The translations under genes and the position numbers were made by a program. A DNA stretch of 64,000 nucleotides from a phage. The stretch lies in NCBI GenBank assembly GCA_012690745.1, contig GCA_012690745.1_4086.2. One strand, given 5' to 3'. How positions within the stretch are numbered: the stretch's first letter is position 1; each line of letters opens with the position of its first letter. Of this stretch, positions 23,012 to 61,942 are shown in pieces. Under the pieces are notes generated by a model. It ran no database searches, was not told where the DNA came from, and saw only the letters and a list, made by a program, of their open reading frames with translations.

Positions 23012-23316
23012 AACACTTAACTGATGATGAATTTGAAACTATAATTCGTAAACTAACCCCCATCACAAGGATAGTCTACGGTGACCCCAGCCTTACATGG
23101 AACCAAATGCGAGCTAAAGTTAATGAGCTATGGTTGCTGTACTTTATGGGGACTCAATATCAAGATAAGTTTTGCACAGAATATATCGAACAATTAACGA
23201 ATGTTATACAGGATAAACTAGATGATTATTTGCTCACAAAACATGAAGATTTTATCAGGAGTGGAGTATCAGACTGCCCTCTTCTCTCTTCTAAACACCC
23301 TCCGCACGAACAATAA
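23002..23316 (+). CDS. small paralog family member 7 (C-terminally extended)
   Basis: Motif FMGTQYQDKFC; the usual stop at the ctATGA junction is absent, so frame reads on ~30 codons over next gene. Confidence 0.5.
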   Translation: MQMKHLTDDEFETIIRKLTPITRIVYGDPSLTWNQMRAKVNELWLLYFMGTQYQDKFCTEYIEQLTNVIQDKLDDYLLTKHEDFIRSGVSDCPLLSSKHPPHEQ

Positions 23317-23494
23317 ACTTTATAATTCCCGTGAAGCTGATATCGTCAACGCTGATGTATATCTTAATAAATTCATAGGGACTAACTATCAAGAACTGTT
23401 CACTCTACGATATATCGCTGCATTGAGAAACGAAATATCAGATAAAACCCGTCAAGCCAGAAGAGAATGGAATAAACAATGCGACACAGACTAA
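23222..23494 (+). CDS. small paralog family member 8
   Basis: Starts MII like other members; motif FIGTNYQELFT. Confidence 0.55.
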   Translation: MIICSQNMKILSGVEYQTALFSLLNTLRTNNKLYNSREADIVNADVYLNKFIGTNYQELFTLRYIAALRNEISDKTRQARREWNKQCDTD

Positions 23495-23727
23495 ATCACA
23501 AAATGTATTGTAAACTATTACAGACACTGGCACAGAAACACTATGACACGGTATCTGGAATATTACCCTATGATATCATGCGTTTACTTCACTGTGAGGC
23601 CGAGATGCTTGTACTGATGACAGGCACTGATAAAACAGCAATCGCCAGATCGATAGAGCAATATATTGATGCACACTGCCAACACATGAGAACCGAAATC
23701 TGGAGGAAAGAGAATGATAATTCTTAA
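23479..23727 (+). CDS. small paralog family member 9 (divergent)
   Basis: N-terminus fits family; motif region divergent (MTGTDKTAIA). Confidence 0.5.
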   Translation: MRHRLNHKMYCKLLQTLAQKHYDTVSGILPYDIMRLLHCEAEMLVLMTGTDKTAIARSIEQYIDAHCQHMRTEIWRKENDNS

Positions 23728-23929
23728 TGAGTATCAGTATCATTGGAGGTTACAAACTATCAAATCAAAAGTGTATAGTATTGTGTTAAACAAATCTATT
23801 GCACAAGAGGACAAATGTGTTATAATAGCTGAAATGAAGTTGGGTGTATTCGTAGGGACAAACTATCAAAACATCTACACTGACGTATTATTAAGTTCCT
23901 TACGTAACAAGGTGGTATCCAAAATATGA
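23714..23929 (+). CDS. small paralog family member 10
   Basis: Motif FVGTNYQNIYT. Confidence 0.6.
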   Translation: MIILNEYQYHWRLQTIKSKVYSIVLNKSIAQEDKCVIIAEMKLGVFVGTNYQNIYTDVLLSSLRNKVVSKI

Positions 23930-24144
23930 GAAATTTACAAGGCTTTGAATACATCAGACTCCTGAAAACATGTGGAAGCAGAAGGAGAATGATATCAAGC
24001 GATAAGAGCATCCAAGCTAACCTTAAGCACGCACTAGTAACTGAACTTTATGTAGGTGCACTCTTAGGCACAAACTATCAACAAATGTATGTAGATCTAT
24101 GGATTGACGCTCTACAGAAAGAGGTTAAAAGTAAATGCAAATGA
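23926..24144 (+). CDS. small paralog family member 11
   Basis: ATGA overlap; motif LLGTNYQQMYV. Confidence 0.6.
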   Translation: MRNLQGFEYIRLLKTCGSRRRMISSDKSIQANLKHALVTELYVGALLGTNYQQMYVDLWIDALQKEVKSKCK

Positions 24145-24353
24145 TTAATTTAAGTAAAGACGAATTTTATGTTATACTGGCGAAAACTTATCCAGCACGT
24201 AAGGCCGTTTATGATAGTCACATTATTGAACCCTCAAAGAAGTTGATTTTAGTAAATGAGATAAAGATGCTTTCAGTCTTAGGAACAAACTATCAAGAGA
24301 ATGCTGTACTGATGTTAATTGATGCCCTCCAGCGAGAGGTTAAACGTAAATGA
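24135..24353 (+). CDS. small paralog family member 12
   Basis: Motif LGTNYQENAV. Confidence 0.6.
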   Translation: MQMINLSKDEFYVILAKTYPARKAVYDSHIIEPSKKLILVNEIKMLSVLGTNYQENAVLMLIDALQREVKRK

Positions 24354-24580
24354 AAATGATTCATTTAACTTACCATGAATATCAAAAACGTTTAAATGCA
24401 TCCAGAGATATAAGGATTCAAATATTCAATAACAAAAGATTGAAGCCTGATATCAGGAAAATCAAAATCATAGAAGCCGTGTTGTGCAACTTCCTAGGGA
24501 CTAACTATCAGGAAGGTAAGGTAGAAAACTATCTTATAGAACTCATGAATAGTATTGAAAATAAATGTAAGGGTAATTAA
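24350..24580 (+). CDS. small paralog family member 13
   Basis: ATGA overlap; motif FLGTNYQEGKV. Confidence 0.6.
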   Translation: MKMIHLTYHEYQKRLNASRDIRIQIFNNKRLKPDIRKIKIIEAVLCNFLGTNYQEGKVENYLIELMNSIENKCKGN

Positions 24581-26241: not shown

Positions 26242-26468
26242 AACACTTGACAGATGATGAACATGGGCTTATAGTAATGGATGTAATCAACATCGAATAC
26301 AAAAAGTTGATACGCTATCGTTGTTATGAAGATAAGCAACTCGTTCTAGCAGAACAGAAGTTGTTTCGACTCTTAAACACAAACTACCAAGCACAATACG
26401 AAGAATCGTACATGTACCTTTTGGCGAGGAAAGCAAAAAGAGATTATGAAAATTTTAAGCAAAGGTGA
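26238..26468 (+). CDS. small paralog family member 21
   Basis: ATGA overlap; motif LLNTNYQAQYE. Confidence 0.55.
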   Translation: MKHLTDDEHGLIVMDVINIEYKKLIRYRCYEDKQLVLAEQKLFRLLNTNYQAQYEESYMYLLARKAKRDYENFKQR

Positions 26469-26667
26469 TTCAGTAATATTACTTATAGAGAGTTCAAGTA
26501 AATTCTTAAACATAACACTGTCTGATATAGATGAAGATGACAAAGAAGTACTGAGAGCAGATTTAAGAGTACTGTTACATCTCGGAACAAACCTACAAGA
26601 AGAATATGTAGAGTGCTACATCAATGAACTTAAAGAATCAGTACTGAGAAGATGCAAATGCGAATGA
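26446..26667 (+). CDS. small paralog family member 22
   Basis: Motif HLGTNLQEEYV. Confidence 0.55.
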   Translation: MKILSKGDSVILLIESSSKFLNITLSDIDEDDKEVLRADLRVLLHLGTNLQEEYVECYINELKESVLRRCKCE

Positions 26668-26879
26668 TTACCGACGAAGAATACCTAACAATTATAAATG
26701 GATTGTTTTTGAAGTTGTTTGTTATTAACACATCAGATATACCAGATATGGATAAAATTATTAAGAGAAATGAAATCTATGTTCAAGCTACACTAGGGAC
26801 TAACTATCAAGAATGCTATATTAATGATTATATTAATACACTTAAACGAGCGATTGAACTAAAATGCCAAAACCACTAG
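26652..26879 (+). CDS. small paralog family member 23
   Basis: Motif TLGTNYQECYI. Confidence 0.55.
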   Translation: MQMRMITDEEYLTIINGLFLKLFVINTSDIPDMDKIIKRNEIYVQATLGTNYQECYINDYINTLKRAIELKCQNH

Positions 26880-27079
26880 GAACAGCAGAATACATTGAAC
26901 TCATGGGATTACACTTCTCATCCTTTCAGAAACTTATGCGAGATTCAAAGAATGATTTAGAATATACCATCAGAAGTTCAGAATTAAGAATGCTTCTCAC
27001 CCTAGACACAGATTCCCAAGAGCGTTTTGTCAATGAGCACATTAGAGCACTTTTAATGGAAATTAAAAGTAAACTATGA
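26864..27079 (+). CDS. small paralog family member 24
   Basis: Motif TLDTDSQERFV. Confidence 0.55.
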   Translation: MPKPLGTAEYIELMGLHFSSFQKLMRDSKNDLEYTIRSSELRMLLTLDTDSQERFVNEHIRALLMEIKSKL

Positions 27080-27291
27080 AGATAATATCAAACCAAGAGT
27101 ACTTGGCACTATTCAGAAAGAATAATCACAAATTTATGGCACTTGATTCAAGAACTGATATAAGTGAACTTGAAAAAAATCTTTTGCGTTCAGATATGAT
27201 AGTACTGACACTCTTAGGAACACAGCATCAAGAGAGAACTGTTAATTCACACATAGGTATTCTTATACAGATTGTACAGGAAAAGATATGA
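27076..27291 (+). CDS. small paralog family member 25
   Basis: ATGA overlap; motif LLGTQHQERTV. Confidence 0.55.
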   Translation: MKIISNQEYLALFRKNNHKFMALDSRTDISELEKNLLRSDMIVLTLLGTQHQERTVNSHIGILIQIVQEKI

Positions 27292-27509
27292 GAATCATAT
27301 CACAACAAGATATTCTTAAGTTCACAAGGGTTCATGCATCTGAATTTGATGCTATATTATCAAAAAGTTACAATGACCCTTATACACAAGATGTACATTA
27401 CAGTGAATTATGGATGTATATACTTTTAGGTACAAATAAGCAAGAGCAAGCCGTACAGAAGTATTTGACAGCTTTACGTGATGCTACAGCTAATGGAGTA
27501 TGTGTTTAA
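27288..27509 (+). CDS. small paralog family member 26
   Basis: ATGA overlap; motif LLGTNKQEQAV. Confidence 0.55.
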   Translation: MRIISQQDILKFTRVHASEFDAILSKSYNDPYTQDVHYSELWMYILLGTNKQEQAVQKYLTALRDATANGVCV

Positions 27510-49387: not shown

Positions 49388-49968
49388 ACCATATCAGAAC
49401 TAAAATTTTGAGACTCATGCATGACATTGCAGAACTTTCAGAGATTCATGACATTACAGAAATTGTTGAATTTGATAATTATCGACTGAAAATTGAAAAC
49501 AAATCCAAACATCGTTTTGGTTCAGTTCAGTTGGATGTATATAAAACTTATGAATTTTCTAAAAAAATTAAAAGTTCATGGGATACGATTACTATGTACA
49601 TTCGCACATCCAGAAATCGTGAACGTATTGGTTCTATTTCTTATAATATGGTATTTGCGAATGCATTACATGAAAAAATGAATAAAATTGTAGAATCTAA
49701 TTTCAGTGAAGATGATGGTTTTATTGGGTTGGATGTTCCACCAGAATTAGACCAAAGTGAAGATATTCGAGATGCATTCATTTTCCAGAAATCCTTGTTG
49801 GACAATTACAAAGAATTCGAGTACTTAATGCTTTGTTACGATACTGCAAAAATTCTTGATTGTGGTGAACTAGTTATGTACAATGATTTTATCAATTGCA
49901 AGACTGATGTTCTGAATACACTACTTCAAAATATAGAATCTGTTAAGGAAAAATATGAACGCTTATAG
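49384..49968 (+). CDS. EYFQ-motif paralog family member
   Basis: ATGA overlap; motif RDAFIFQKSLLDN. Confidence 0.55.
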   Translation: MNHIRTKILRLMHDIAELSEIHDITEIVEFDNYRLKIENKSKHRFGSVQLDVYKTYEFSKKIKSSWDTITMYIRTSRNRERIGSISYNMVFANALHEKMNKIVESNFSEDDGFIGLDVPPELDQSEDIRDAFIFQKSLLDNYKEFEYLMLCYDTAKILDCGELVMYNDFINCKTDVLNTLLQNIESVKEKYERL

Positions 49969-50536
49969 TTATATGACAGAACGCCATCAGTTATTATATG
50001 ATATCAGTAAAAAAATGCTATCAATTGTTGGTAGTGCGAAAGAAATTGAAAAACAATATCTCATCCGTGATGTATCAATTTCATCCAAATGTTGGTCAAA
50101 TGAATATTACGACCACGGTATTCTTACTATTTCTGGGGCTAGAAATATTTGTATTGTAAAAAATAAAAGTAAAAGTAATGAAGAGTGTGAGATTAGAACC
50201 GATATACAAATTAAGGATGATGGAAGTTTTTCACATCACCCATTCCATATTAGTACTATTGGTGTTTTATATAATATTAAAGTACTATTCGGTGATGAAG
50301 AGTATGTGTTAAAAGCTATCAATCCAGATTCAAGTACAGTTGAAGAAGAACTGTTCCAGATGAGCACTGTTATACCTGAAGAGGTTCTTAGTACTGTTGT
50401 TTTTTGTAGTTTAATTTATCATACATACAAAAAGAACCAATTCGATTTCCACATTTTAGGAACGTACATCTTCAATACTTTGAATGTTGATCGTTTAAAA
50501 GCATTAAATGCAGCAATGGATAAGGTGCTACAATGA
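49955..50536 (+). CDS. EYFQ-motif paralog family member
   Basis: Motif VEEELFQMSTVIP. Confidence 0.55.
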   Translation: MNAYSYMTERHQLLYDISKKMLSIVGSAKEIEKQYLIRDVSISSKCWSNEYYDHGILTISGARNICIVKNKSKSNEECEIRTDIQIKDDGSFSHHPFHISTIGVLYNIKVLFGDEEYVLKAINPDSSTVEEELFQMSTVIPEEVLSTVVFCSLIYHTYKKNQFDFHILGTYIFNTLNVDRLKALNAAMDKVLQ

Positions 50537-50961
50537 CAAGAGATGATTGTTTGTACATATGGGATATAATTGAAACTACACTTTCAAATCCAGAAAATTA
50601 TAAAACAAAAAAAAGACAACGACACAAAATATGGATAGATTTGTTCGTTGAGGGCATACACGCAGTGACTATTTGGGATTCACCGAGGGCATCAGCATCT
50701 ACTCTATTGGACAATGAATGCATTGATTGCATTAATTCCACTTTTCATCTCTACGGTACTACATTTTTCGGTACATTTCTGGATATTGAAAGTAAAGATG
50801 ATATTGATTCACTTGCGTTACAATACCAAGTACTGTATAATACTAAATTAATTTACGATTTAGTACTAGCTTCTTATGTGTATAAATTAATGATGAAATA
50901 TAATCATATTTCTGTTTCAGTTTATACTAAGGATATTCTTTCATTAAGAGACAAAACATGA
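50533..50961 (+). CDS. hypothetical protein (array member, weak motif)
   Basis: ATGA overlap; weak LALQYQVLYN. Confidence 0.45.
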   Translation: MTRDDCLYIWDIIETTLSNPENYKTKKRQRHKIWIDLFVEGIHAVTIWDSPRASASTLLDNECIDCINSTFHLYGTTFFGTFLDIESKDDIDSLALQYQVLYNTKLIYDLVLASYVYKLMMKYNHISVSVYTKDILSLRDKT

Positions 50962-51467
50962 GTTTATTAAATGCACGCGAATTAGTTGAGATGTATGAGA
51001 TTTTGTCTTCATATAAAAATTCTCATGGAGATGTGATTCTCGACAAAAAGTTCAATGTCAGTGTTGAACATATATCAAATATAGATATGATTTCTTTGGT
51101 GGAAAGTAATAAGTCAGGTCTTGAACGCGATATCATGCGTTTGATTTATATTCCCAAACCATCATATACTAATGATAGTTCAATTAGTAATGAGACATTC
51201 ATGTATAGTCCTGGTACGGATTCTACTATAGTATCGCTGTCCAATAAATCAATGGGTACTTTCCAATTCATCTATACCAGTACTGATAACATTGAAGAAA
51301 TTGAATTTCAAAACAATACATTAAGTCCATGTAGTAGTGTTATAACCTTTATGTCATATCTATGGTCAACTAAAACAAGTGCTGTTGTATATAGTTCAAA
51401 TTATACACAAGATAGTATTGTTGAATCATATAAAGTTCTAAAGGAATACTATGAAAATAACAAATGA
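50958..51467 (+). CDS. EYFQ-motif paralog family member
   Basis: ATGA overlap; motif IEEIEFQNNTLSP. Confidence 0.5.
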   Translation: MSLLNARELVEMYEILSSYKNSHGDVILDKKFNVSVEHISNIDMISLVESNKSGLERDIMRLIYIPKPSYTNDSSISNETFMYSPGTDSTIVSLSNKSMGTFQFIYTSTDNIEEIEFQNNTLSPCSSVITFMSYLWSTKTSAVVYSSNYTQDSIVESYKVLKEYYENNK

Positions 51468-58752: not shown

Positions 58753-58784
58753 AGGACGGGATTTGTTATCTCGTCCTTTTTTTG
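58753..58784 (+). terminator. rho-independent terminator
   Basis: Stem aggacg(gg) / (at)cgtcct, T7 tract. Confidence 0.7.
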
Positions 58785-58795
58785 TCTGGAGATGT

Positions 58796-59650
58796 ATGAA
58801 ACTTTATCTAATCGTTGACTACAATAAGGATTATGCTGGTAACTTCACCGAAGATTCGGATGGATATTGCACATCGACTAATGTCAATGTACGTAGCAGT
58901 AGTGCTCATGAACATGAATCTTGTAAAAATCTAAAAGATTTTATCGCATACCGAGCATTTGAAAAGAACTTCTGCCGCAGTAGATATTCGAAGTTTGAGT
59001 ACCCGTTAATTGATGTTCCTGATGATTTAATGTTCCAGTTAATGTTGACTGGAGTTCAAGATTATGATTACATAGCGTATAATCATATTACTAAGAAAAT
59101 TTATATTGGTACATCATCACATGACACTTCTATGTATGCATCATGCCCAGATGATCGAATGAATGATAGAAAATCATACTATAGTGGGTCAGTTGGTTTA
59201 AATGATTCATTAAATAAAAATTCATTCTTTGAGTATGTTTATGATTACCATCATGAGAAAAAAGAACGTGAAGATTACTGTATAGCAATTGATAGTACTA
59301 ATGGTTATGAAGACGTGAAAGAAGCACTTATGCCGTACATTATTGAAAAGTACTACAAAGATTTTCAGTACTGTAGTAATTTTCTAATCAGAAATTCTAT
59401 TATAATCGGTCGCCAATCTAGTGCATACTCTCAGTACTACAACGATTCACCAGTAGCATCGGCAAATGAAATGTGTGATATTTTACAAATTCCACGTGAA
59501 GATATGACATTTATTTTTACGTCTTTTATTGAAGATGATGAGTTGTATATTAAAAATAAACATCGTTTCATGCCAAGCAGGATTGAGGTTATTCGAAGTT
59601 TTAGTGTTGATATACTAACAAATTTCACAGAAAAAACCGAATATAACTGA
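58796..59650 (+). CDS. hypothetical protein (284 aa)
   Basis: Trimmed from track 58763 to ATG 58796 (RBS GGAG); weak family-like PDDLMFQLMLTGV. Confidence 0.55.
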   Translation: MKLYLIVDYNKDYAGNFTEDSDGYCTSTNVNVRSSSAHEHESCKNLKDFIAYRAFEKNFCRSRYSKFEYPLIDVPDDLMFQLMLTGVQDYDYIAYNHITKKIYIGTSSHDTSMYASCPDDRMNDRKSYYSGSVGLNDSLNKNSFFEYVYDYHHEKKEREDYCIAIDSTNGYEDVKEALMPYIIEKYYKDFQYCSNFLIRNSIIIGRQSSAYSQYYNDSPVASANEMCDILQIPREDMTFIFTSFIEDDELYIKNKHRFMPSRIEVIRSFSVDILTNFTEKTEYN

Positions 59651-59679
59651 GACAAATGATAAGTTAATGATATAATATA

Positions 59680-59714
59680 AGGTGACAACATAATATGTTA
59701 GTCACCTTTTTTTA
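59680..59714 (+). terminator. rho-independent terminator
   Basis: Long stem aggtgacaacat / atgttagtcacct, 3-nt loop, T7 tract. Confidence 0.8.
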
Positions 59715-60250
59715 ATCCTGAAAGGTTCCCATAAGGAAATGATTAAAAGCCTAATCCACTCGAAAATGTAGAGGGTAGATGAGTAGTCCTTTCAGTACGA
59801 ACAGCAGATGAAACCCGTTAGATGATGGCATAGTTTGAACCACTCACGGCAATGCGGCTGTATAAAGAACTCCAATAGGATAAAGAGAGTTCCTCGATAG
59901 ACATATAAGGATCGCACCTTACCAATTATCTAAGGGAGATTTCATAAGAAATATGCGGTCGGAATTATACAATATAGTTGCGTCCAAATTTTGTGAAATC
60001 AAATACAAGTACTGGTCATATGGTATTTGTATTATGTGTCGGGATGTTTAAGACCGACGACCGTTGCTACAAGAACCGCGATAGAGAGAAACAGAGCAAC
60101 CCGCTTTCGTCTCATAAGAGAATTCGTGATATGAACTATGTGAAGGCCACCAGCGTCAAATTTTTTTGTTCTTTCCCCTGCGGGGGGATGAAATATGCTC
60201 AAGCAAACCCCGTCAATATTAATTAAAAGAAAATAGTACTTGTAGAATTA
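59715..60250 (+). other. ORF-poor, visibly GC-richer 540-bp region; candidate structured noncoding RNA or regulatory region
   Basis: Only one weak ORF (59978..60226) without RBS; local hairpins such as cccctgcgggggg. Confidence 0.3.
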
Positions 60251-60328
60251 GACATGCGTAGCATGATAATTCTACTGATGTTGATGCAATCAACGTCACG
60301 TATATTCATTGATGTTTCCATAGGAATA

Positions 60329-60874
60329 ATGATGGCATTTATTAGAAAAGAAAAAACTGTTACTTATAAAACTTTGAATTTTGATGATTGCATTAATCAA
60401 TCACAAGACGAAGATATCTTTACTGGATATGTGGTTATTAAAGAAAAAGGATGCATTTCTTATATAAAGGAATTACAAAATGGAATTGAAGTGACTTCAG
60501 TTAAATTACTTCCTACTCAAAAACCAACAATATCAAAAGCCCAGTATGGTAATTATTTTGAAGAAAGATATAGTAATAATTCAATAAGTGTTAAGGCTCA
60601 TATTATTAAAGGAGAACTAGAAGGAGAATATAGAAAATACAACCCACAAGGAAAATGTGTTTGGGTTAAATACTTCAATTCAGGATATGATGTAACATCT
60701 GAAATTATAGAATTCTTGGGTTTAAAATGTACCCCTGAGACTATTCATGATTACAAGTTCAATACTGAAGAAGAGTTTAATCTGATGATGCGTTACGGTT
60801 CACATTTTAAATTTTTATATGAATATAACATTGACAGTAGTACTTTTGATAAGATAGTACACAACTGTCTCTAA
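60329..60874 (+). CDS. hypothetical protein with possible MORN/YwqK-like repeats
   Basis: Trimmed from track 60254 to ATG 60329 (RBS AGGAA); GELEGEYRKYNPQGKCVWVKYFNSGYDV resembles MORN-type repeats. Confidence 0.45.
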   Translation: MMAFIRKEKTVTYKTLNFDDCINQSQDEDIFTGYVVIKEKGCISYIKELQNGIEVTSVKLLPTQKPTISKAQYGNYFEERYSNNSISVKAHIIKGELEGEYRKYNPQGKCVWVKYFNSGYDVTSEIIEFLGLKCTPETIHDYKFNTEEEFNLMMRYGSHFKFLYEYNIDSSTFDKIVHNCL

Positions 60875-60890
60875 CAAAAGGAATTATATA

Positions 60891-61412
60891 ATGTCGAAGA
60901 AGGATGCTTCGAAAAAACATTCAGTACATTTCAGTACTGGAAAAGATAACTGGACAACTCCCAAAGATTTCTTTGAAGATTTGGATGAGTTATGGGGATT
61001 TACACTTGATGCTGCTTGTGTTGATGAGACTGCATTGTGTGATAATTTTTTCACTCCAGAAGATGATTCACTATCACAGGATTGGGGAAATAATATAGTT
61101 TGGTTGAATCCACCATACAGTGACTTGAAAACTTGGTTATCTAAAGCAGTAGATGCATATAATAACGGGGCAACTGTAGTTATTCTTGTACCCTCAAGAA
61201 CCGACACAATTGCTTTTCAGGATTATGCTGCTAAAATATGTGATTGTATTTGTTTTATTAAGGGAAGATTACGATTTGGTATACCAGAAGAACCCGATAA
61301 GAAAACAGATTCAGCACCATTTCCTTCGTGTCTGATAGTACTGGATAAGTACTTAACCACTGCTAAAATCAATTATCTTAAATCTCTTGGATTGGTGATG
61401 AAGAATTTATGA
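60891..61412 (+). CDS. dam: DNA N6-adenine methyltransferase (phage Dam-type)
   Basis: WTTPKDFFEDLDELWGFTLDAAC followed by catalytic NPPY; overall phage Dam-like; RBS AAGGAA. Confidence 0.8.
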   Translation: MSKKDASKKHSVHFSTGKDNWTTPKDFFEDLDELWGFTLDAACVDETALCDNFFTPEDDSLSQDWGNNIVWLNPPYSDLKTWLSKAVDAYNNGATVVILVPSRTDTIAFQDYAAKICDCICFIKGRLRFGIPEEPDKKTDSAPFPSCLIVLDKYLTTAKINYLKSLGLVMKNL

Positions 61413-61942
61413 AAGAAACATGTGTATTAACGTTTGGTCGTATTAATCCTGTACATCGTGGACATGGTTTAGTTTTTGAAAAGGCCAAAACATTACAAGA
61501 ACAGTACAATGCTGATTTAAAAATATATCTAAGCACCAGTACTGACAATATAAAAAACCCACTCCCACCTGAACTAAAAATGTATTATACAGAGGGATTC
61601 TATCCTTCAGTGCAAGAGAACATCTACACAGAAGACAATCTATTTGATATAATGAGAGAACTGGATGGAAAGTACTTAGATGTTCTTTTCATTTGTGGTT
61701 CTGACCGTATTGATTCTTTTCAAAAAACTCTTGACATGTACAATGGTAAGTTGTATAATTTTTGTAGTATAAAAGCAATTCAGGCAGGTATTGACCGTAA
61801 TGTAAGTCAATATAGCTCAACACAAATGCGTAACTTCGCAAAAAATGAAGATTTTGATAGTTTTCGTGAGTTTTTACCTGGAAATGACGAGGACTTAAAA
61901 ATACAATTATTTGAAGACGTTATAAAATACATGAGGAAATAA
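61409..61942 (+). CDS. cytidylyltransferase-superfamily nucleotidyltransferase, NMN adenylyltransferase-like
   Basis: N-terminal TFGRINPVHRGH (HxGH nucleotidyltransferase motif) and SSTQMR (ISSTxxR-like); ATGA overlap with dam. Confidence 0.6.
   Translation: MKETCVLTFGRINPVHRGHGLVFEKAKTLQEQYNADLKIYLSTSTDNIKNPLPPELKMYYTEGFYPSVQENIYTEDNLFDIMRELDGKYLDVLFICGSDRIDSFQKTLDMYNGKLYNFCSIKAIQAGIDRNVSQYSSTQMRNFAKNEDFDSFREFLPGNDEDLKIQLFEDVIKYMRK

Follow-up and report, generated by a model that had tools for sequence, protein, structure and literature searches.

A 64,000-nucleotide stretch of phage DNA (NCBI GenBank assembly GCA_012690745.1, contig GCA_012690745.1_4086.2; the whole of it is called the window below) carries two overlapping open reading frames on its + strand, ORF1 (60891-61412, 173 amino acids) and ORF2 (61409-61942, 177 amino acids). 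We think it likely that these are independent genes in the early region of an Asteriusvirus which are transcribed together, that ORF1 is an N6-adenine methyltransferase of the phage family PF05869, and that ORF2 is an adenylyltransferase of a phage clade which stands outside NAMPT-based NAD+ salvage. The observed parts of this account are the identity of the genes, their family placement, fold and distribution, the absence of NAMPT and NadM, and the lack of conservation at the junction between the two genes. The original prediction, made from the sequence alone, had instead read the pair as a translationally coupled Dam-type methyltransferase and NMNAT-like enzyme, by which protection against restriction and against NAD+ depletion would be expressed together.

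The two genes and their phage

The 2.1 kb around ORF1 and ORF2 share 99.8% identity with Escherichia phages 121Q and phAPEC6, and 36 phage records match this region at 82-99.8% identity, about thirty of them, besides 121Q and phAPEC6, at 82-99%. Phages 121Q and phAPEC6 belong to the genus Asteriusvirus, whose members are RaK2-like jumbo phages of about 350 kb. Because the region is conserved in these 36 records, because homologues are many, and because the motif residues of ORF2 are invariant, both reading frames are, judged on their sequence, real genes. When the coordinates were rechecked, both reading frames and the motifs NPPY, HRGH and SSTQMR were found as originally described, and so was the ATGA at 61409-61412, in which the ORF2 start codon (ATG, 61409-61411) shares bases with the ORF1 stop codon (TGA, 61410-61412).

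More than 30 published genomes already carry annotations of the two genes, and the pair is thus ordinary and not new. GenBank records of the relatives label ORF1 as "DNA (N-6-adenine) methyltransferase" and ORF2 as "cytidyltransferase". In KM507819.1, MH791411.1, PP777464.1, MK773491.1 and KF156339.1, ORF2 or its homologue is given the name "ribonucleotide reductase A", a label that is without support here and appears to be a propagated error.

ORF2 is a minimal member of a large phage-specific family

ORF2 (61409-61942, + strand) is classified by profiles and a structure model as a stand-alone HIGH-signature nucleotidyltransferase of the phage-specific family PHROG 3041, which is named "cytidyltransferase" and matches residues 2-176 with an E value of 8.5e-58. 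Against curated families, it remains below threshold throughout, with 17.3 bits each for Pfam CTP_transf_like and FAD_syn. The segment TFGRINPVHRGH comprises residues 8-19, and the (H/T)xGH nucleotide-binding signature is present as HRGH within FGRINPVHRGH (residues 16-19, 61454-61465, + strand), in which H19 is invariant and G18 near-invariant among 40 family members. KNPL (residues 49-52, 61553-61564, + strand) aligns with the KNPM/KKPM of PPAT, both in the family alignment and in a HMMER alignment to PPAT, and presumably also with the R(D/N)PF motif of archaeal and NadM-type NMNAT. The C-terminal SxTxxR motif of the superfamily is SSTQMR (residues 136-141, 61814-61831, + strand), with S136 and R141 invariant. 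All in all, the 40 stand-alone members share FGRxNP(P/V)(H/T)xGH, KNPL, GSDR, YNG, SAGxR and S(S/A)TxMR, and the motif residues of ORF2 are invariant across 13 close homologues.

A profile of these 13 homologues, searched against 1.84 billion representative proteins, recovered 3,412 relatives, 2,247 of them with E values of at most 1e-10. In many relatives the domain lies at the N-terminus of proteins of 500-1,200 amino acids, for which Pfam and PHROG scans gave sporadic Zeta-toxin/AAA_33 kinase, DUF5824 and Hint domains and no consistent fusion to a Nudix or ribosylnicotinamide-kinase domain. In phage genomes, tblastn found the family in 566 records, of which 460 are T4-like cyanophages, the rest including RaK2-like, PA5oct-like and other large phages. 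The cyanophage members are known as "cytitidyltransferase" (PHROG 3041/395; Syn9 gp184, S-RIM8 SXDG_00170, S-SZBM1_140), and they are 32-39% identical to ORF2 over 85-98% of its length (tblastn) and have the same motifs. They differ from ORF2 in being 360-570 amino acids or larger, with N- and C-terminal extensions, whereas ORF2 is the bare catalytic domain, and in lying near gp41, UvsX and MazG with no Dam gene adjoining. ORF2 is therefore best described, on the strength of these comparisons, as the minimal form, a single domain, of a HIGH-signature nucleotidyltransferase clade that is very large and specific to phages. The function of the cyanophage protein has been called unclear (PMC9146016), and literature searches under the family name and on NAD genes of the 121Q group found no functional study of the family.

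ORF2 resembles NMNAT without joining it

The AlphaFold model of ORF2 (pLDDT 86.9) has the Rossmann-like fold of the HIGH nucleotidyltransferases, with an alpha/beta architecture and an N-terminal HxGH loop as in the CTP_transf_like clan. Foldseek comparisons of this model ended in a tie between PPAT and NaMN (nicotinic acid mononucleotide) adenylyltransferase, at an E value of about 5e-6. Neither ORF2 as a single sequence nor the profile of its close homologues matched any sequence in the PDB. The broader 40-member profile gave weak matches spread over PPAT, NMNAT and FMNAT; its full-length alignments were limited to PPAT and one NaMNAT (E about 1e-4), while NadM and NadR types aligned across the N-terminal 65 residues only. 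Sub-threshold NCBIfam matches over the 40 members lean towards NMNAT (NadD 27, archaeal NMNAT 18 and NadR 14, against 9 for CoaD and 11 for RibF), and comparison of the family with single references by hhalign ranks RibF first (52.6), followed by the NadM of Cronobacter phage GAP32 (46.0), NadR (38.7), NadD (29.2) and CoaD (23.6).

The resemblance to NMNAT that was originally proposed is thus genuine at the level of motifs and of sub-threshold matches, but membership could not be upheld, as no curated NMNAT or NaMNAT family model was passed by ORF2 or by any of the 40 sampled members. ORF2 reaches 19.8 against a cutoff of 112.45 for the NadD model TIGR00482, with the match confined to residues 8-28, that is, to the HxGH loop, and the best E values for PRK01153, TIGR01526 and TIGR01527 among the 40 members are 1e-5 to 1e-7, which is far below equivalog level. 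Indeed, (H/T)xGH and SxTxxR, both present in ORF2, define the whole superfamily and not NMNAT. The known branches are also distinct when taken one by one. From NadM-type enzymes (Francisella NadM-Nudix 2qjt, GAP32_112 and the KVP40 Nmnat of the pathway NARP2), ORF2 differs by an identity of 16% and by the lack of a Nudix domain; the GAP32 NadM matches PHROG 3041 only at 3e-7 and only over its N-terminal 93 residues, and both types co-exist in the same genomes. CoaD/PPAT reaches the ORF2 family only at an E value of about 1e-4 and has the lowest hhalign score of the five references, and we know of no phage context for the CoA pathway.

Taken together, the sequence comparisons and the model suggest that ORF2 is probably adenylyltransferase-like, belonging to the NMNAT/PPAT/FMNAT branch as a separate phage clade. 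Because this chemistry is common to its nearest structural relatives NMNAT, PPAT and FMNAT, ORF2 would use ATP to attach AMP to a small acceptor at the phosphate group of the latter, with release of pyrophosphate; by analogy to these enzymes, ATP is most likely the donor and a molecule of this kind the acceptor. NMN (nicotinamide mononucleotide) or NaMN is the single most likely acceptor, a guess that we would nevertheless expect to fail more often than not, as the remaining probability is spread over other acceptors.

ORF2 and the NAD+ salvage question

Among the phage pathways of NAD+ reconstitution, NARP2 requires NAMPT and NARP3 requires PnuC and a NadR-like kinase fusion (10.1101/2024.02.11.579819; PMC13464706). 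A HIGH-superfamily adenylyltransferase domain is common to both pathways and to ORF2. Of the phages with a NAMPT homologue, 94% are reported also to encode a Nmnat homologue (10.1101/2024.02.11.579819). The original prediction had suggested looking for a NAMPT partner, and the search was directed at NAMPT and NadM.

Phage GAP32 served as the source of the queries. It has an ORF2 homologue, GAP32_069 (39% identity), directly after the Dam homologue GAP32_068, and 22 kb from GAP32_069 it encodes the NadM-Nudix protein GAP32_112, the NAMPT GAP32_114, a Sir2 protein and a Nudix gene. GAP32_112 matches PHROG 395 from end to end (E 5e-86) and also Pfam NUDIX. The GAP32 NAMPT and NadM were compared by tblastn with the complete 352-kb genome of ECO103 4-12-1, which is 92-99% identical to the window, and nothing was found with an E value below 0.08, a search that a very divergent Namat-like enzyme would escape; Sir2, Nudix, ORF1 and a single copy of ORF2 were recovered from this genome by the same tblastn. 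A NAMPT encoded elsewhere in the Asteriusvirus genome is thereby rejected as far as homologues detectable by tblastn with the GAP32 proteins are concerned. The NAMPT/NadM partner is likewise absent from the syntenic site of 121Q, the search having covered these two proteins and not PnuC and NadR. At that site of 121Q (NC_025447.1, 218420-221475), genes for a ClpP-like and a HslV-like protease are found where GAP32 has NadM-Nudix and NAMPT, and Sir2 (PF02146), a Nudt16-like Nudix gene and PhoH are retained.

The NadM and NAMPT pair was detected by tblastn in CBB, Serratia BF, Yen9-04, 7t3, Munch, EJP2, RaK2, K64-1 and RCIP0023, and no Asteriusvirus was among the strong matches for either protein. 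The NARP2-like cassette that their relatives carry appears to have been lost from the Asteriusviruses or never to have been present in them. Several of the phages with NadM and NAMPT, including GAP32, 7t3 and RCIP0023, keep an ORF2 homologue beside them, and as the ORF2 family is thus retained where a real phage NMNAT exists, a different job can be argued for ORF2.

On these sequence searches, we place ORF2 outside any NAMPT-based route of NAD+ salvage in this phage. The reading of ORF2 as an NMN/NaMN adenylyltransferase that rebuilds NAD+, coupled to Dam so that anti-restriction and resistance to NAD+ depletion are co-expressed, has the motifs and the NMNAT-leaning matches in its favor, but we hold it to be improbable. 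PPAT and FMNAT are as close to ORF2 as NMNAT, the partner was not found, and the relatives with genuine NadM and NAMPT keep the ORF2 homologue as well. The family is, moreover, mostly a cyanophage one, and cyanophages are not prominent among the NAMPT carriers, Synechococcus being outside the ten most frequent hosts of phages with NAMPT. An NMNAT alone would also be unable to rebuild NAD+ from ADP-ribose and nicotinamide, and the ATGA overlap that suggested the coupling is generic and not conserved, as described below. Motifs that resemble those of NMNAT should therefore not be taken to indicate a pathway of NAD+ reconstitution.

A true cytidylyltransferase that makes a CDP-activated alcohol or sugar (of the CDP-glycerol type) for the envelope or for DNA modification is a far more remote alternative for ORF2. 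It has the annotation in GenBank and PHROGs behind it, the weak CTP_transf_like match mentioned above and the citation of glycerol-3-phosphate cytidylyltransferase as a homologue in cyanophage papers (PMC9146016), but the CTP-using enzymes (GCT/TagD, CCT and ECT) are not the closest relatives of ORF2. "Cytidyltransferase" is the least supported name for this protein, and we regard neither of the two database names as supported.

ORF1 is a phage adenine methyltransferase of family PF05869

ORF1 (60891-61412, + strand) is an orphan phage N6-adenine methyltransferase by profile matches and by its structure model. It matches Pfam PF05869 ("DNA N-6-adenine-methyltransferase (Dam)") with 110.8 bits, against a gathering threshold of 28.1, and an E value of 7e-32 over profile positions 7-149 of 169, and PHROG 111 with an E value of 7e-57, and it falls narrowly below the cutoff of the NCBIfam equivalog TIGR01712 (91.5 versus 97.05). 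A database search gave 2,441 homologues; among the 120 matches listed, PF05869 was found on every one, and the source names, where given, are phage N-6-adenine methyltransferase or adenine-specific DNA methyltransferase. Catalytic motif IV, NPPY, is at residues 73-76 (61107-61118, + strand), fits the (D/N)PP(Y/F) pattern, and has N73, P75 and Y76 unchanged across 26 homologues. The AlphaFold (AF2) model that was built from these 26 homologues (pLDDT 85.8) has a class-I methyltransferase fold, and N6-adenine methyltransferases come first among the PDB folds that match it, led by the CAPAM/PCIF1 catalytic domain with TM scores of 0.62-0.68 and followed by RlmJ. E. coli Dam is a weak structural match, with a TM score of 0.36.

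The term "Dam-type" in the original prediction is thus appropriate as the name of the Pfam family and for the chemistry, and misleading if it is meant as the lineage of E. coli and T4 Dam; as far as sequence and model can tell, ORF1 is a PF05869 phage methyltransferase and not a member of that lineage. The PF05869/TIGR01712 enzymes are typified by the Dam proteins of Haemophilus phage HP1 and of Stx phages. ORF1 is like them in its near full-length match, in the NPPY motif and in being a phage-borne, single-domain orphan of about 170 amino acids, and it differs in the missed TIGR01712 cutoff. The solved structure closest to the ORF1 model is that of a eukaryotic mRNA cap-specific adenosine N6-methyltransferase, CAPAM/PCIF1, and not that of a DNA methyltransferase, and PF05869 members appear to be without any solved structure.

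ORF1 would methylate adenine at N6 in dependence on S-adenosylmethionine, most likely in the phage DNA, and would thereby blunt restriction. The papers on phAPEC6 and Sharanji assume the same anti-restriction role for the phage methylase. In the window as well as in a sister genome, GATC is depleted to 0.5-0.6 of the expected number, and this depletion speaks neither for nor against GATC as the target of ORF1.

The junction probably reflects gene packing and the adjacency is probably inherited

The proposal that translational coupling coordinates the expression of the two genes found no support in these comparisons. Four-nucleotide NTGA overlaps occur at 31 of the 149 adjacent + strand junctions in the window, 30 of them as ATGA, and they are the commonest type of junction. 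The ATGA overlap of ORF1 and ORF2 is best taken as a sign of how densely the genes are packed in this phage. Long chains of reading frames of about 70-190 amino acids that are joined by successive ATGA overlaps were also noted at 21745-24580, 26446-27509 and 49955-51467 of the window (+ strand); the annotation of the sister phage SHEFM2K gives these as tandem arrays of paralogues (PHROGs 9317, 12674, 13866 and 15629).

Nor is the overlap conserved. GAP32 has a 3-nucleotide spacer at the corresponding junction, and of two metagenomic relatives, one (L030) has an 8-nucleotide overlap and the other (L032) a 1-nucleotide spacer. In ECO103 4-12-1 (OR844650.1, 260324-259539, minus strand), a gene for 261 amino acids, which belongs to PHROG 681 "endonuclease" and Pfam CapR/DUF723, lies exactly between Dam and the nucleotidyltransferase, with an ATGA overlap on each side. 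The 5' end of the nucleotidyltransferase gene is recoded there, FMRCNPIHNGHGF replacing FGRINPVHRGHGL, and the first 30 or so codons have diverged. As such a divergence of the adjoining ORF2 copy is expected for them, the insert looks like a homing-type mobile gene. EC22.5-2 gives the same match in two pieces, about 0.8 kb longer, as known from the nucleotide match alone.

Across the RaK2-like phages, a four-gene block is conserved in the order PHROG 16210, Dam, nucleotidyltransferase and PHROG 14956, at 24-59% amino acid identity, and it is also found in the two metagenomic loci L030 and L032. In the window, the upstream gene of PHROG 16210 is at 60254-60874 (+ strand; 35% identical to GAP32_067), and the downstream gene of PHROG 14956, for 97 amino acids, is at 61945-62238 (+ strand); the latter is 39% identical to GAP32_070 and 37% and 24% identical to its counterparts in L030 and L032, respectively. 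Outside this group, the two genes go separate ways. Dam and the nucleotidyltransferase are not adjacent in cyanophage S-RIM8, in PAC2 and DLP_6 or in the further loci L017-L019 and L031; the nucleotidyltransferase gene has primase-helicase, UvsX and MazG as neighbors in T4-like marine phages and different ones in PAC2 and DLP_6, and directly downstream of one marine Dam homologue lies an IMPDH-like gene. We therefore take the adjacency for inherited synteny of the RaK2-like block and not for evidence of a joint mechanism.

A common DNA pathway, in which the nucleotidyltransferase makes a nucleotide-activated donor for methylase-marked phage DNA or adenylylates this DNA, could appeal to the conservation of the block from Asteriusvirus to Mimasvirus and the metagenomic relatives, but it is very improbable, since the majority of both the 2,441 Dam homologues and the nucleotidyltransferase members occur without the partner gene, since a mobile endonuclease gene separates the two in some phages with neither lost, and since Pfam and PHROG scans found nothing in the block that resembles a glycosyl or other group transferase. 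ORF1 and ORF2 would act independently.

What the two genes likely share is transcription of an ordinary kind. A sigma-70-like sequence, TTGACA-16-GATAGT, with 10 of 12 consensus positions, lies at 60831-60858 (+ strand), 33 nucleotides 5' of the ORF1 start codon, and is, as a pattern match from a consensus scan, a candidate promoter for the pair. The scan for terminators, a simple one that missed the hairpin at 59679-59713, found none between ORF1 and ORF2. With a promoter in front of ORF1 and no terminator in between, co-transcription appears likely. A perfect sigma-70 consensus, TTGACA-17-TATAAT (12 of 12), is found at 61731-61759 (+ strand) within the ORF2 coding sequence and points to the small genes downstream, again as a pattern match only, and the pattern scan gave a second sigma-70 match of 11 of 12 at 62454-62482.

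A structured RNA-like element and GCGC avoidance in the surroundings

Upstream of the four-gene block, a gap of 603 nucleotides (59651-60253) contains a structured RNA-like element of about 480 nucleotides (59735-60230, + strand). Four copies of it are present per Asteriusvirus genome and five each in GAP32, CBB, Serratia BF, Yen9-04, SE_PL and XaC1, and altogether it was found at 275 places in 62 records, nearly all of them unannotated. Between genera, the copies are 66-76% identical in nucleotides, with flanking proteins that are only 35-42% identical. An alignment of ten copies supports 14 helices with 59 pairs, 28 of which show compensatory double changes; 97.8% of the alignment cells are paired, compared with 36-45% when the partners are slid, and the covariation score is 0.50, compared with at most 0.105 in the slid controls, values that none of 500 shuffles reached. 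A scan with Rfam 15 returned no family. By its strong covariation, we regard 59735-60230 as a conserved, multi-copy structured RNA-like element. In the related phage PA5oct, four non-coding RNAs of similar size were defined by RNA-seq (PMC7318152). Just 5' of the element, and after the reading frame at 58763-59650, a strong terminator-like hairpin, GGTGACAACAT-AAT-ATGTTAGTCACC followed by seven T, is located at 59679-59713 (+ strand).

The surroundings are also conspicuous for a missing tetranucleotide. GCGC does not occur in the window, where 40 ± 6 copies are expected from shuffles, nor in the 352-kb ECO103 4-12-1 genome (OR844650.1; about 160 expected), nor in 36 kb of GAP32 (26 expected), and no other of the 256 tetranucleotides shows this behavior. 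CCGG is reduced to 0.53-0.64 of its expected number, and GTAC exceeds its own 1.4-1.6-fold. Neither "GCGC" nor "HhaI" was found in the retrieved papers that name these phages. Complete avoidance of GCGC thus holds in genomes of 350 kb.

Implications for the nucleotidyltransferase family

A leader of the pattern MK-x-(Y/F)-x-x-(L/F)-(L/I/V)-x-E is present in 49 of 180 sampled relatives of ORF2, one or two of which are probably chance matches. It stands directly before the first strand of the catalytic domain, as in MKNYRQLVKE-LPSK and MKTYKQFLKE; in cyanophages it takes the form MKxFxxFLxE, one leader-bearing case being at the S-RIM8 locus (L005:3252-4406). This leader closely resembles the sequence by which the internal proteins of T4 are targeted to the capsid, MKTYQEFIAE, which contains an LxE protease site. 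A cyanophage member of the family, of 362 amino acids, was detected in purified virions (PMC9146016). From the likeness of the leader together with this detection, it may be that many members of the family are enzymes which are packaged in the phage head and enter the cell together with the DNA. The leader is missing from ORF2 and from its orthologues in RaK2-like phages.

One could go further and see in ORF2 the bare core of a phage-only adenylyltransferase clade that produces or regenerates an adenylylated metabolite, which might be NAD+ formed from host NMN or might be a compound not described so far, as an immediate-early means of counter-defence or takeover that is independent of NAMPT. 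We offer this as a speculation that is itself rather unlikely.

That anti-restriction is linked to NAD+ salvage, as had been proposed, was not borne out, and the finding as it was posed matters little. The surroundings of the gene pair, with the structured RNA-like element and the avoidance of GCGC, are of more interest than the pair itself. For the family, the examination of ORF2 marks out a very large group of phage nucleotidyltransferases, which at 50% identity forms at least 3,400 clusters.

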